Source: Scenedesmus sp. PABB004 (Eukaryota). From it: a DNA stretch of 64,000 nt. Location: positions 186,001 through 250,000 of the forward strand of contig JABVCE010000009.1 in the NCBI GenBank assembly GCA_014905635.1, given 5' to 3'. The position numbers were made by a program, and so were the translations under genes. Position 1 is the stretch's first letter; each line of letters begins with the position of its first letter. Shown here in pieces: positions 51,762-57,420 of the stretch. The notes beneath the pieces are model-generated. The model had not been told where the DNA came from, ran no database searches, and saw only the letters and a program-made list of their open reading frames with translations.

Positions 51762-53717
51762 TCACTCCAGCAGCTTCACCACGTCCTCCTGCTCGTTCAG
51801 CTGCGCCACCTCCAGCGCCGTCTTGTCGTCCGCGTTCTTGGCGCTGCGGTCCGCGCCGCTGCGGGGCGCACGGGGGCGGCCGCGGCGTCGGCGGCGGGCT
51901 CCCAGCCGCGCCGCGGCGCCGCGCCCCGCCCGCGCCGTGCGCACCTGTCCACCAGCAGCTTCACGCCCTCCGCCTGGCCGTAGCCCGCGGCGTAGTGCAG
52001 CGGCGTGTTCTTGTTGTTGTCGACCAGGTCCAGCGCGGCGCCCGCCGCAATGAGCGCCTGCGGCGGCGCGCGGGCGCCGTGAGCGCGCCGGGCTGCGCGT
52101 GCTGCGCCGGCGCCCCCTGCTGCGCGCGGGCGGGCGCGGGCGGGCGCGAGCGCGGGCGCGTGCCGCGCTGCCGCGCGCACAGCGCGCGCGGCGCACCTTG
52201 GCGCAGTCGAGCTCGCCGTAGCCGACGGCAAAGTGCAGCGCGGTGCGGCCCTCGTCGTCGACGTCGTCCACCGCCGCGCCGGCCTCGAGCAGCTGCGTCA
52301 GCAGCTCCACGTTGCCTGCGCGCGGGCGTCAGCATGAGGCGCGCCCGCGCGCGCCGGCGCCCGGCCGGGCACAGAGCGCGCAAGGGCGCGGGCCGGCCGC
52401 GCCGCGCGCCGCGCGCCCACCGTCGCTCGCGGCGCTGTGCAGGTTGGCCTCCTCCTCCTCCTCCTCCTCCTCCTCGCCCTCCGGCACGCCCTCGCCCTCG
52501 CCGAGCATGGCCTGCGCGCGCGCGGGGGCGGTGCGCGTGAGCGCGGCCGCGGCGGCCGCGCGGGCGCTGGCGGCGCTGCGCGCGCGCTCGCGACGCCGTC
52601 AGCGGGGCGGGCGGTCGTACGCGCCTGGAAGTCAAACACGCCGCCCATGGCGCCGCCGAGCTTCTTGAGGACCTCCGGGTCGTTCCAGTACCTGCCGTGG
52701 GTGCGCGGCGCGGCGTGCGGCGCTGGGCGCCGGGCGTTCGGCGCGCTGCCACCCGGCGCCGTGGCGCTGCCGTTCGCGGCGCGGCCGCTGCCGCGGCGCG
52801 GCGCGCGCCGCACTTCATCATCGCCGCGGGGCCGCCGCTCTCGAGCTCGGCGAAGATCGGCCCCATCTCGGGGTCGTCCTTCAGGTCCTTCAGCGCGCCC
52901 TCGATCTGATGGCGGCGCGCGGCGCGGCCGCGTCAGCAAGCGGCGGGCGGCGGCGAGCGCGCGGCGCGCGGCCGGGGCGCCCCGCGCGTGCCGTGCTGTG
53001 CGCGCTGCGCGCGCGCGCCTTGGCCTTGTACTCGGGGTCCTGCATGGTCGACATCATCTTCTGCATGTTGGGGTCGCTCTGCGCGGCCGCGCCACGCAGC
53101 AGCGGCGGCGGCGGGGGCGCGCGCGTCGGCGCGCGGCGCGCGGCGCGGCCGCCGGCGCGGCCGCCGCGGCGGCGGGGGCGGCGCCGGGGCGGCGGCGCCG
53201 GGGCGGCGCCGACAGCCGCGCCGCGCATGCATGCGGCGTGCGGCGGCGGCGCGCCTGGATGATGGCCTGGCCCAGCTTCTCGGCCATCTGCATGAACTGC
53301 GGGTTCTGGAACATGCCGCTCATCGCCTGCATGTACTTGGTGGGGTCGAAGTTGGCGGGGTCGATGGCGGGCATGCCCGGCGGCATCCCGGGCATGCCGC
53401 CCCCGGCACCAGCAGCACCGGGGGGCATCCCAGGCAGGCCGCCCGCGCCCATCATGCTGCTCATGCTCTCTTGCAACTGCGCCGTGAGGCCCTGGAAGCT
53501 GGGGTCGCTCGCAATCTGCTCCGCCATCTGCTTGATCGACGGATCCTGCGCGGGCGGCGCGGCGGGCGCATCCACCCATCGCCCGCGTCAGGCCGCGCTT
53601 GCGCCGGCGCCAACGGGCCCGCGCCGGCGCCAATTGCGCACGCCGCACGTTGAGGGCGCTCTGCAGGGCGCTGAAGTCGAAGGGCGCCCCATTGCCGCCC
53701 GGCATGCCCGGCATCAT
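51762..53717 (-). CDS. AKR2: AKR2-like ankyrin-repeat membrane-protein chaperone (STI1-like DP motifs plus ankyrins); multi-exon
   Basis: [101 protein letters not shown]. Confidence 0.93.
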
Positions 53718-54489
53718 CTTGGCTGAGGCGCTGCGCGCGAGCCCGAGGGTGTGAGGCGTCCGGGTGGCTCGCGAAGCGCGGAGGAGCGCGGCGGGGGTGT
53801 GGGCGGCGCGGCGGCGGCGGCGGCGGGTGCGGTCGCTCGAGCCCGCCGCGCCGCAAAGCCCTGCCGCGTCGCGCGATCGGCGCGAGCGCCCGGCTGCCAG
53901 CTCCACTCAGGTGACAGCCCCTCGGGCGACCGCGCAGCGGGTCGCGTCGGTGCGCTGCCGGCCGCGCGCGCGCGCGGCGGCGGCGCTCGCGCGGCGCGCC
54001 AGGGCCCGGCGTGGCCGGGCCCGGGCGTGCAGGGCGGGGCCTCCTGCCGCGGTGGCGGGCCCGGCAGGCCACACGGCCGTCGCAACGGCGCACGCTGATC
54101 AAGTCCGGCGGCGTGGGGTCGGTCACCGGTACGTGACTGCTGCGCCGCCGTGCCGGCGCGACTCCCCGCCCCCCGCCGCGCCGCCCACACGCTCGCCTTC
54201 CACCGGTCCTGCCTCCGCGCCGTCGCCCCTGCTTCCTCCCTCCCAAAAAGGTGGGCGCACGCCTGCGACCGGCCGCGGCGCCGATCCAGCGCGGGCGGCG
54301 CGCGGCCTGGCCGCGCGCTCCCGCGCGCCCACGAGGCCGAGCGGCCGGCGTGGCGGCCGGCGCGGCCGGATCGGGCCCGCAGGCGCCGCTGGCGGCCGTT
54401 TGGACATGCGCAGCCCTCTCCGCTGCCTCCAACCCTCCGCTGCCTCTCACACGCCGCATTCGCCCGTTCCCGCTCGGCAGGTCGCGGTC

Positions 54490-55914
54490 ATGGCCTCTCT
54501 CGCCCTCGTTGCGGCGCTCCTGGCCGCCCTCGCGCTCTGCGCGACCGCGGCGCCCGAGCTCAGGTGCGCACCTTGGGGCGCACGGCGCGGGCTTGTGCTC
54601 TCCGGCGCAATCGCACCGCGCGCCTCCACACGCGCGGCCGCGCCGCGAGCGCCGCCGCGCAAGCAGCATCTTTGCGGGGGTGACGCCGCCGCGCGCGCGG
54701 GTGACGTGCGCACCCAGAGGCTTCCTGCGCCGTGTGCCGCGCGCCGGGCCTGCGCCCTGACGCCCAGCCGGGCTGCACCGGGCCGTGGCCGCGCCGCCGC
54801 GCGCCGGCGCACTCCTGGCCGCTGCGCCCACACCTCCCGGGGCCGCCCGCGTGCGCCGCAGGGGCCGTGAGCTGCTCGGCGACAAGCCCAGCGTGTCCAT
54901 TTCCGTGACCAAGGGCGGTGCGTGGGGCTGGGGAGGGGCGCGTGCTGGCGCACGTGCAGGCCCAGGCGCGCCCGCGCCAGCGCTGGTCGACGAGACCCGC
55001 CCCGCCCTGCGCCGCCCGCCGCAGACGCCGGCGCCGCCGCCGCGGCCGCCAAGCCCGCCGACGCCGCGCCCGCCGGCAAGCCGGGGCTGGTGATCCCCGA
55101 GCAGAAGTTCAGCTACTCCTGGAGCACGAACGACCAGCTCAAGGCCAAGACCTGGACCTGGGATGCGACCACCGGCTGGGTGGCCTCCTCGAAGAAGATG
55201 TCTGGCCGCAAGATGCTCGGCGACAAGCCCAGCCTGTCCATCACTGTGACCAAGGGCGGTGCGTGGGGGCTGCTGCGGGGGCGCGCTGTCCGCGCATGGC
55301 CCGCCCACGCCATCGCGGCGTGTCGCCGAGACCCGCCCCGCCCGGCGCCCGTCCGCCGCAGACGCCGGCGCCGCCGCCGCCGCCGCCGCGCCCGCGGCCG
55401 ACGCCAAGCCCGCCGACGCCAAGCCCGCGGCGGCCCCCTCCTTCAGCTCTGTCTCCTCTTGGAGCACGAACGACAAGCTCAAGGCCAAGACCTGGACCTG
55501 GGACGCGACCACCGGCTGGGTGGCCTCCTCGAAGAAGATGTCCGGCCGCAAGATGCTCGGCGACAAGCCCAGCGTGTCCGTTTCCGTGACCAAGGGCGGT
55601 GCGTGGGGCTGGGGGACGGGCGCGCTGCTGGCGCATGCGCAGGCCCATGCGCGCCCGCGCCAGCGCTGGGGCGCTCAGACCCGCCCCGCCCTGCGCCGCC
55701 CGGCGCAGACGCCGGCGCCGCCGCCGCCGCCAAGCCTGCCGACGCCGCGCCCGCGGACGCCAAGCCCGCCGCGAAGCCGGGGCTGAACATCCCTGAGCAG
55801 AAGATCAGCTACTCGTCCAGCTCGAACGACAAGCTCAAGGCCAGGACCTGGACCTGGGACGCGACCACCGGCTGGGTGACGACCGAGAAGAAGATGTCTG
55901 GCCGCAAGCTGTGA
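54490..55914 (+). CDS. Secreted tandem-repeat precursor protein, 268 aa, 5 exons (54490-54563, 54862-54917, 55025-55258, 55362-55598, 55709-55914)
   Basis: All four introns GT-AG and in frame; signal peptide MASLALVAALLAALALCATAA; three modules GDKPS...TWTWDATTGWV...KKMSGRK(M)L. Confidence 0.85.
54870..55914 (+). repeat. ~340-bp exon+intron tandem triplication
   Basis: Donor context gtgaccaagggcg|gtgcgtgggg recurs with intron starts at 54918, 55259, 55599. Confidence 0.92.
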
Positions 55915-56311
55915 GCTGCCACCGAGTGTTCAACATGCCCGCGGCACACAAGCACGCGCGCCGCAGCTTTTGGGGCGGCCCCTGGCTGGGCTGGGCGCTA
56001 TTTCATTGTGCTGGCGGCCCTGTGGCTGCTGAACGCAGCAGACGACGACGACCCCCTGCCGGCGAGCGGGCGGACGGCCCCTCGGTGACCGTGACCCGAC
56101 ACCTTGACCCCCGACGACCGCGCAGCATGCAAGCACTGCCGGGCGGCGGCCGCCTGCGCGGCGCGCACCAGTACTGCGCGCGCTCGTGCGCGCGCGCTCG
56201 CTGCTGCTCCTACGATATGCCGTGTGACAGCGCCCACGGTTACTTGCGTGTAACAGGGTTGCTCACCCACAGCCCGCGCGCGCCCGCGCCGGGCGCTCGC
56301 GTCCGCCGCCG

Positions 56312-57420
56312 CTACGCCTGCTTTGCCTCGGCCAGCTCGTCCGCGAGCTGCCCCAGCTCGCCCGCTTTGTGCATCTCCATGAGGATGTCGGAGCCGCCGA
56401 TGAACTCGCCCTTCACAAACACCTGCGGGGGCGCGGGCATCGGGCGTGCGCGGCTGGGCGGCGCGCGCGCGCACGCGGCGGCGGCCGGGCGCGGCGGCCC
56501 AGCCCGGCGCGGCGGCGGGGCGCGCGGGCGCGCCTGGGGGATGGTCGGCCAGCCCGTGAACTTCTTGACGCCCTCGCGCACCGCCGGGTCGGCCAGCACG
56601 TTGCGGCTGCCGTACTTGAAGTCTGGCGGGCGTGGCAGCAGCGCCGCGTCCGCGGCAGCGGCGTGGGCGCGTGCGCCGCCGCCGCCGCCCGCCCGCCGGC
56701 CGGCCAGCCCCCGCCCCAGCGCGCCGCTGTCTCTGCCTGCCGCCCCCGGTCCCTGCGCCGCGCGGCGGCGCTCGCTCACTGTACGCGTCCAGGATCTGGC
56801 AGGCCATGCTGCTGAACCCGCACTGCGGCTGCTCGGGCGTGCCCTGCGCGGCGCAGCGGCGGCGGCTCAGCGGCGCGCGCGGGCGCGGGCGCGGGCGCCC
56901 CTCCCCGCCCGCCGCTCCCCGCCGCCCGCCGCCGCGGCGCGTCCGGCGCTGGCGGCGGGCGGCAACCGCCCGGGCGCCGCCCGCGCCGCCGCCGCCGCCG
57001 CCGCCGCAGCAGCAGCAGCGGCCGGCGTGCGCCGCGCGGGCAGAGCCTTGGCGAGGCGCGCGCCTTCATGTAGATGAAGACCTGGTTGTCCGCCACGTCG
57101 GCCTTGATCTGCGCCTCCACATCGCCCACGGGCTCGGCCTTGTAGCGGGGCTTGAAGTCGTCGTGGCTCTCGTCGCCCGGCACGACCGCGAGTCCGCGGC
57201 GCGGCGCTGCTGCCGCGCCGCGCGCCGCCGCGAGCGCGGCCGGCGCGAGCGCCGCTGGGGAGGGCGGCGGCGGCGGCGGCGCGGGGGTGAGGGCGGCAGC
57301 AGCAACGGGGGGGGGGGAGGGGCGGCCCGCCGCGCGTGCGGCGGCGGCGAGCGTGCGGTGAGCTGCGCACGCACCGGCGGAGCGGCCACCGCGCGCGCCG
57401 AGCGCCAGCAGCAGGGCCAT
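56312..57420 (-). CDS. GRXS15: Monothiol CGFS glutaredoxin, mitochondrial GrxS15/Grx5 type; 4 exons
   Basis: ESHDDFKP...NQVFIYMK-GTPEQPQCGFSSMA...[37 protein letters not shown]. Confidence 0.95.

Follow-up and report, generated by a model that had tools for sequence, protein, structure and literature searches.

A recently triplicated exon-plus-intron unit encoding a putatively secreted, Cys-free, Trp-rich orphan protein in the green alga Scenedesmus sp. PABB004

Introduction

Does a green algal gene that encodes three near-identical, Trp-rich modules, with a Gly-Arg motif at every joint, specify a precursor of peptides or a secreted protein that works in one piece? The question is raised by a gene at positions 54490–55914 on the forward (+) strand of a 64,000-nucleotide stretch of the Scenedesmus sp. 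PABB004 genome (assembly GCA_014905635.1, contig JABVCE010000009.1, positions 186,001–250,000), here called the window. An initial annotation of this DNA had proposed a prohormone-like secreted polyprotein releasing three peptides. The gene is real and coding, as indicated by its codon-position signature, its frame-restoring introns and its match to an NCBI record, and its modules are the products of a recent DNA-level triplication. We favor, with about even confidence, the view that it encodes a lineage-restricted, β-rich protein that is secreted, remains intact and is associated with the surface or wall.

Gene Structure and Protein Product

The gene has five exons, from an ATG at 54490 to a TGA at 55912–55914, with the following parts (positions in the window):

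54490–54563 (+), exon 1: start codon, signal-peptide-like N-terminus MASLALVAALLAALALCATAAPEL and bases 1 and 2 of the Arg25 codon; G+C content (GC) by codon position 0.80/0.60/0.92
54564–54861 (+), intron 1: 298 nucleotides (nt), GT..AG; GC 0.815, codon periodicity absent
54862–54917 (+), exon 2: GRELL junction (54863–54877) and the start of module 1 (GDKPSVSISVTKG)
54918–55024 (+), intron 2: 107 nt, GT..AG, belonging to repeat unit 1; 94% identical to intron 4 and 88% to intron 3 at aligned positions
55025–55258 (+), exon 3: 234 nt, phase 1-1; remainder of module 1 with its Ala/Pro/Lys spacer and Trp-rich strands, GRKML junction (55204–55218), start of module 2; GC by codon position 0.54/0.59/0.96
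55259–55361 (+), intron 3: 103 nt, GT..AG, belonging to repeat unit 2
55362–55598 (+), exon 4: 237 nt, phase 1-1; remainder of module 2 with its spacer and Trp-rich strands, GRKML junction (55544–55558), start of module 3; GC by codon position 0.54/0.66/0.96
55599–55708 (+), intron 4: 110 nt, GT..AG, belonging to repeat unit 3
55709–55914 (+), exon 5: remainder of module 3 with its spacer and Trp-rich strands, GRKL (55900–55911), stop codon TGA (55912–55914)

The spliced coding sequence (CDS) of 807 nt translates into 268 amino acids (aa), identical to P0001, the NCBI entry 'hypothetical protein HT031_003318 [Scenedesmus sp. PABB004]'. It confirms the layout read initially, a signal-peptide-like N-terminus, GRELL, three Cys-free modules separated by GRKML and a terminal GRKL-stop; in full, the protein reads MASLALVAALLAALALCATAA-PELR-GRELL, then the three modules with GRKML between them (twice), then GRKL. 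Each module starts with GDKPS(V/L)S(I/V)(S/T)VTKG and ends with TWTWDATTGWV(ASS/TTE)KKMS. The expected size of about 78 aa and the Trp-rich character hold as well: the modules are 78, 79, and 81 aa long with the trailing junction (73, 74, and 77 aa without it) and contain 4, 4, and 3 Trp, or 11 among the 247 mature residues. The sole Cys of the protein sits in the signal peptide. Of the predicted signal peptide, the hydrophobic N-terminus is present as expected (residues 4–16, 13 residues hydrophobic and uncharged, then A-T-A before AP), as read by eye. The initial annotation had not recorded that every module is interrupted by an intron at the same position, after VTKG, nor that the repeat is a tandem array at the DNA level.

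Coding Signature and Start Codon

An open frame alone is uninformative here, since the window is 79% G+C and holds 548 stop-to-stop open reading frames (ORFs) of at least 60 aa in its six frames. Those ORFs served as the reference set for a periodicity index, GC3-(GC1+GC2)/2. The spliced CDS has GC1/2/3 of 0.57/0.61/0.95 and an index of 0.36, where the 99th percentile of the set is 0.24 and one of the 548 is higher; GC of the four introns is 0.82–0.84. The codon-position pattern is present in every exon taken separately and absent in every intron. The array introns (107/103/110 nt) include no multiple of 3, and splicing restores the same frame every time. Coding length differences between the copies are all multiples of 3, the internal exons measuring 234 and 237 nt. 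All 31 Lys codons are AAG, and the enrichment in Lys, Trp, and Thr runs counter to the GC-rich background.

The start codon has one competitor:

54406–54489 (+), upstream in-frame ATG: 28 extra codons, 84 nt before the annotated start, no intervening stop

If translation began at 54406, the protein would not be secreted, and its hydrophobic segment would be the second part of a bipartite plastid/thylakoid-lumen signal or a membrane anchor. The extension is Ser/Pro/Arg-rich and is followed by the hydrophobic run and A-x-A, as that idea would have it, but no twin-Arg motif is found, and the NCBI model begins at 54490. The upstream stretch is pyrimidine-rich, with GC by position of 0.75/0.64/0.75, and its third positions carry G or C in 21 of 28 cases (P = 3e-4 under the CDS rate of 0.951). 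As these 28 codons lack the coding signature, the annotated start is the likelier one, 54406–54489 is probably 5' untranslated region (UTR), and use of the upstream start appears very unlikely.

Tandem Array and Duplication History

The modular structure of the protein reflects a repeat in the genomic DNA:

54873–55908 (+), tandem DNA array: period 340, 3.0 copies, score 1211, exon and intron duplicated together

It is the only array scoring at least 300 in the window. By alignment, the homology between repeats spans 54863–55911 and is bounded at both ends by the 12-nt GGCCGYRAGCTG; it begins at GGCCGTGAGCTG (54863) and ends at GGCCGCAAGCTG (55900–55911), immediately before the stop codon. The internal joint reads GGCCGCAAG-ATG-CTCGGC, which looks like a 3' copy joined to a 5' copy at the 12-nt repeat and then altered by a single C-to-A substitution (Leu to Met). 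A single-module ancestor with G-R-x-L on both sides may thus have been amplified by unequal exchange through the short repeat.

The array introns are mutually 87–94% identical at aligned positions, with many short indels. Coding block A (GR..LGDKPS..VTKG, 54 nt) is 87–93% and coding block C (WSTND...KKMSGRK, 93 nt) 88–97% identical between copies, both without indels, and the middle coding blocks measure 95/98/107 nt. As the introns are about as alike as the coding blocks, the triplication is recent. The same fact removes the weight that the initial annotation had placed on the identical junctions: GRKML is shared because the copies inherited it and is no evidence of selection, and the repeat pattern lies far beyond chance because it is a duplication. 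In the three pairwise comparisons, non-synonymous against synonymous codon differences number 4/3/3 against 2/1/0 in block A and 1/7/6 against 2/1/1 in block C; non-synonymous differences equal or exceed synonymous ones in 5 of the 6. The copies thus differ mostly non-synonymously, with no sign of constraint, although the numbers are small.

Search for Relatives

The module had been described as belonging to no recognized family, and Pfam, protein database searches and hhalign all leave it so: the protein is an orphan. Against Pfam, the three exon units and the whole protein fell below every cut-off (best HTH_74, 19.3 bits against a cut-off of 25). A word-indexed search of 5.8 billion protein clusters with exon 3 gave no significant match among 31 candidates of near length, and one among 2154 longer candidates, the protein's own record. 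Exhaustive phmmer against 1.84 billion representatives (E ≤ 0.001) returned three matches, namely the protein itself and two bacterial repeat giants of 2029 and 4417 aa.

Those giants are the only lead toward a known repeat family, a match that had been named as a way in which the initial proposal could fail. Their phmmer E-values are 5.5e-20 and 3.3e-12, in register across several repeats, and BLASTP aligns 215 columns at 29% identity (E = 8e-9). P0002, the one of the two scanned against Pfam (P0003 was not), carries HYR_4C in 13 stretches (E = 8.8e-97). The algal modules could on these grounds be distant relatives of bacterial HYR-like or Ig-like surface repeats, as degenerate Ig-type adhesin repeats. 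The phmmer score is inflated: each protein consists of near-perfect repeats, with periods close to each other (79 against 83 aa), so that a single weak match between units enters the sum repeatedly. Ala-rich low-complexity sequence makes up about one third of each aligned module. At the level of a single module, hhalign gives a probability of 0.85% (E = 0.065, 20 columns); P0001 has no HYR_4C match at E ≤ 1, and its modules have none of the four Cys. Homology was therefore rejected, and this reading is strongly disfavored.

Further collections yielded nothing closer. The ESM Atlas held no match by features, and its structural rows were disregarded, the underlying model having a pLDDT (predicted local distance difference test) of 0.39. 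A scan of JGI metagenomes produced 80 pattern matches and no relatives. In IMG/VR there were 74 pattern matches and one 'relative', L001, a 707-aa phage-type ORF that shares only GDATTGWV and was rejected. Across the protein, ESM Atlas, JGI, and IMG/VR searches, no homolog was found beyond the protein's own record; eukaryotic genome assemblies lay outside these searches, and unannotated homologs in sister algae are possible. The literature search found no paper naming the locus tag and no match combining peptidylglycine, green algae and Scenedesmus. A cell-wall proteomics study of a different species that used the PABB004 database (PMC11839794) does not contain 'HT031' in its main text, and one of its supplements has neither 'HT031' nor the peptide TWTWDATTGWV; given the species, both are uninformative.

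Four sequencing runs shared small fractions of words (0.06–0.17), three of them freshwater metagenomes and one from an organism of unrecorded kind; no RNA run was listed as sharing sequence. They yielded no more than short pieces of near identity and GC-rich fragments of unrelated sequence, none of which bears on expression or habitat. In two of the freshwater-metagenome runs, a C>T difference occurs at 55543, on one contig each at depth 2–3.4. By our reading it changes the last base of the Ser codon that precedes the second GRKML (TCC to TCT) and is synonymous; strain variation or an error may account for it.

Such isolation could mean that the gene is young and weakly functional or non-functional, with little or no transcription and with repeats drifting neutrally. 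The single record among the clusters and representatives searched, the absence of a paralog within the window and the mostly non-synonymous differences between copies all agree with this. A recent non-coding origin would not be expected to leave so strong a codon-position signature in all five exons. The frame is also kept across three introns whose lengths are not multiples of 3, with coding length differences in multiples of 3, and Lys (AAG 31 times), Trp, and Thr are enriched against the base composition. We regard this explanation as improbable.

Composition and Predicted Structure

The mature product is basic, Cys-free and about 25 kDa; its 247 residues include 48 Ala, 31 Lys, 29 Ser, 20 Thr, 17 Pro, and 11 Trp, and its isoelectric point is 9.87. 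In an AlphaFold2 (AF2) model of the 77-aa exon unit, built from a three-row alignment, three strands cover QKFSYSW, KAKTWTWD, and GWVASSKK. Foldseek of this model against the PDB gave 0 matches at E ≤ 0.001. In the sequence itself, Ser/Thr residues alternate along each strand with Val/Ile or Phe/Tyr/Trp. A sheet of such strands would have one hydroxyl-rich and one aromatic face, a typical property of amphipathic β-sheets involved in packing, assembly, or polysaccharide binding.

Intact Protein or Processed Precursor

In the reading that we favor, the ancestral gene would have encoded a single module, made of a short Ser/Val strand, an Ala/Pro/Lys-rich spacer and three amphipathic β-strands in which Trp/Tyr/Phe alternate with Ser/Thr, and unequal crossing-over of the 340-bp exon-plus-intron unit would have tripled it recently. 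The product would most likely enter the endoplasmic reticulum (ER) by its N-terminal signal peptide and probably work extracellularly without being cleaved, as a multivalent, β-rich protein at the surface or in association with the wall. Its three aromatic/hydroxyl-faced mini-sheets would be repeated binding or assembly units, held apart by the flexible spacers. Secretion, β structure, an extracellular role and lack of cleavage are all inferred. The Pfam scans detected no enzyme or known domain, which we count in favor of the intact protein.

Several points weigh against it. The likeness of the N-terminus to an ER signal peptide is judged by eye, and the upstream ATG, if used, could change targeting and would bury the hydrophobic segment. 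The AF2 models are of low confidence, the whole protein being predicted as all-β strands at a mean pLDDT of 39.7 and the exon unit at 53.2. A conventional wall glycoprotein is not what the composition suggests. Hydroxyproline-rich glycoproteins and arabinogalactan proteins (AGPs) carry Ser-Pro(n) blocks or clustered Ala-Pro, Ser-Pro, or Thr-Pro. The mature protein contains PP 0, SP 0, TP 0, AP 4, and KP 10 times and has no N-x-S/T sequon; it has no Pro blocks, and its AP/SP/TP glycomodules are not dense. With few Pro glycomodules and no sequon, it is unlike a hydroxyproline-rich wall glycoprotein. Finally, a structural protein that stays in one piece has no need of some features seen at the junctions. 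The motif RxxL is limited to residues 27 (RELL), 105, and 184 (both RKML), each time directly before GDKPS, and G[KR][KR] to 104, 183, and 265 (GRK), once per module directly after KKMS. Five of the six Arg lie in or beside these motifs, and the 31 Lys lie elsewhere. Whole modules, which cover about 238 of the 268 residues, tile the mature protein, with a junction motif at both ends.

These junctions are the basis of the proposal that a secretory-pathway subtilase cuts each of them and frees three amphipathic Trp/Lys-rich β-peptides of about 75 aa, which would coat the cell surface or have an antimicrobial or signaling role there. The match to published motifs that was initially pointed out is upheld, RELL and RKML fitting the site-1 protease (S1P)/SBT motif and GRK the amidation motif, both confined to the module boundaries. 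In the available text of PMC13082318, RxxL/RxLx is given as the site of S1P/SBT6.1 and SBT3.5; RALF23 is cut at INRRIL/ATRRY and PROSCOOP12, by SBT3.5, at TGRRLM/GSGASG (slash, cut), and TGRRLM/GSG resembles SGRKML/GDK. For Chlamydomonas, amidated products were predicted with G(K/R)(K/R) in the excerpted PMC6313938, and one amidated product of this alga is a gamete chemoattractant according to the excerpt of PMC6919629. The near-confinement of Arg to the junctions points the same way, as does GGCCGYRAGCTG at both array ends, which suggests that the single-module ancestor may already have had flanking G-R-x-L. Weakly, so does the 77-aa AF2 model, in which the junction and the following GDKPS...VTKG strand are unstructured (pLDDT < 50). 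Precedents exist in the fungal KEX2-processed repeat proteins (KEPs) and in Ustilago maydis Rep1, which is cleaved into peptides that assemble into amphipathic fibrils on the surface (PMC3133707, PMC9769878, and PMC6339444, in part).

Several observations count against cleavage. The identity of the junctions is explained by recent duplication (introns 87–94% and coding blocks 87–97% identical), and the differences between copies show no sign of constraint. G(K/R)(K/R) is common: of 771 soluble signal-peptide proteins in Chlamydomonas, 331 contain it, and the NeuroPred 'known motifs' do not include RK, both as stated in the consulted portion of PMC6313938. The dibasic pairs are RK at 105, 184, and 266 and KK at 100, 179, and 261, with no KR or RR, and by estimate about two pairs per module are expected by chance at 15% basic residues. 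The Ala/Pro/Lys spacer, the most linker-like segment, falls inside each proposed peptide and not between the peptides.

The two possible routes, moreover, predict different ends. If an S1P/SBT-type enzyme cuts after R-x-x-L, the peptides would begin with GDKPS and end with ...KKMSGRK(M)L; if a convertase cuts after G-R-K and carboxypeptidase and PAM then act, they would begin with (M)L-GDKPS and end with ...KKMS-amide. The initial annotation had combined a GDKPS N-terminus with a Ser-amide C-terminus, and that combination does not follow from one cut. With the cut after RKML, the peptide ends in ...GRKML, and trimming back to Gly is not possible for a carboxypeptidase specific to basic residues; with the cut after GRK, the next peptide begins with ML-GDKPS. 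Both ends together require two cuts per joint. Peptide processing is neither refuted nor demonstrated by the sequence, and release of three surface peptides seems to us unlikely, if well worth weighing. Somewhat more doubtful is its fuller version, an algal polyprotein of the Rep1/KEP or neuropeptide type in which a secretory subtilase would cut G-R-K-(M)-L, the peptides, possibly Ser-amidated, would self-assemble or signal at the surface, and duplication through the 12-nt repeat would have raised the peptide dose per transcript.

Genomic Neighborhood

G+C is 75–83% in every 2-kb bin of the window, and long antisense ORFs such as 53461–54900 (-), 479 aa, overlap the gene as composition artefacts. 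Within about 690 nt 3' of the stop codon there is a sole TGTAA, the poly(A) signal of chlorophytes:

56249–56253 (+), TGTAA: candidate polyadenylation signal
56312–57420 (-), convergent, intron-interrupted glutaredoxin gene: stop-to-stop frame matching Pfam Glutaredoxin (E = 1.5e-8)
53054–53527 (-), divergent upstream ORF: 157 aa, Met/Gly/Pro/Gln-rich, no Pfam match at E ≤ 0.01

One exon of the glutaredoxin gene reads ...PQCGFS..., with CGFS as in the monothiol type, and its last exon ends with FIGGSDILMEMHKAGELGQLADELAEAKQA-stop at ~56312. This 3' end lies about 60 nt from TGTAA, and the two 3' UTRs probably abut or overlap. The divergent ORF probably belongs, as an exon, to a real gene, and about 1 kb of 5' intergenic sequence would then be common to it and the three-module gene.

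Significance

Gene structure, coding signature, duplication history and orphan status are established by the evidence. If the junctions are cut, the protein would provide a clean case, from a coccoid green alga that is not a model species, of a tandem-copy propeptide in a lineage other than animals and fungi, and would release a peptide of a new Cys-free, Trp-rich type. It would then offer a simple substrate for identifying the algal subtilase of S1P- or convertase-like processing and would bear on PAM-type amidation beyond Chlamydomonas. If they are not cut, it would be one more lineage-specific secreted repeat protein, with a well-documented, very recent tandem duplication of exon plus intron.

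Comparison with Known Systems

The prepropeptide-like secreted proteins of Chlamydomonas are processed by subtilisin-like convertases, carboxypeptidase and PAM (Luxmi et al. 2018, PMC6313938; 2019, PMC6919629, in excerpt). They share with the present protein the lack of a recognized domain and similar repeated units followed by Gly and two basic residues, and they have a signal peptide, which its N-terminus resembles by eye. Of the prohormone-type features listed in the former paper, paired-basic flanking sites, G(K/R)(K/R) and multiple copies without a recognized domain are found here. There is no sequence similarity, and the product tested in Chlamydomonas is a 23-residue amidated peptide from a 94-kDa protein (PMC6919629, in part), whereas the unit here has about 75 aa. 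The site here is R-K, and the host is scenedesmacean.

Plant propeptides cut by S1P/SBT6.1 or SBT3.5 (PMC13082318, in excerpt) likewise carry R-x-x-L directly before the proposed mature N-terminus, as all three modules do here. They contain one peptide each and R at P3, in contrast to the tandem copies and the E or K at P3 in the algal protein; there is no homology, and for the latter the cleavage is a prediction.

The Bacteroidota-type giants with Pfam HYR_4C have a similar period and a weak in-register match (GD.P...I.V... / ...T.T.D.T). The algal protein has no Cys in its modules and no Pfam match, and the likeness is treated as periodic and compositional.

Fungal KEPs, including Rep1, resemble the present protein in being secreted and almost wholly made of at least three tandem amphipathic units with basic junctions, and the peptides released from Rep1 coat the cell surface as amyloid-like fibrils (available parts of PMC3133707, PMC9769878, and PMC6339444). 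Of the features by which PMC6339444, in the part available, defines KEPs, at least three repeats and repeats over at least 15% of the length are found here, with secretion read by eye from the N-terminus; the defining KR/RR/KK site is not, the junction pair being RK, with KK five residues upstream, and the host is a green alga. Sequence similarity to KEPs is also absent. If the algal protein is cut, its closest functional analogs would nevertheless be the fungal KEX2-processed repeat proteins, with Ustilago Rep1 as the best example.

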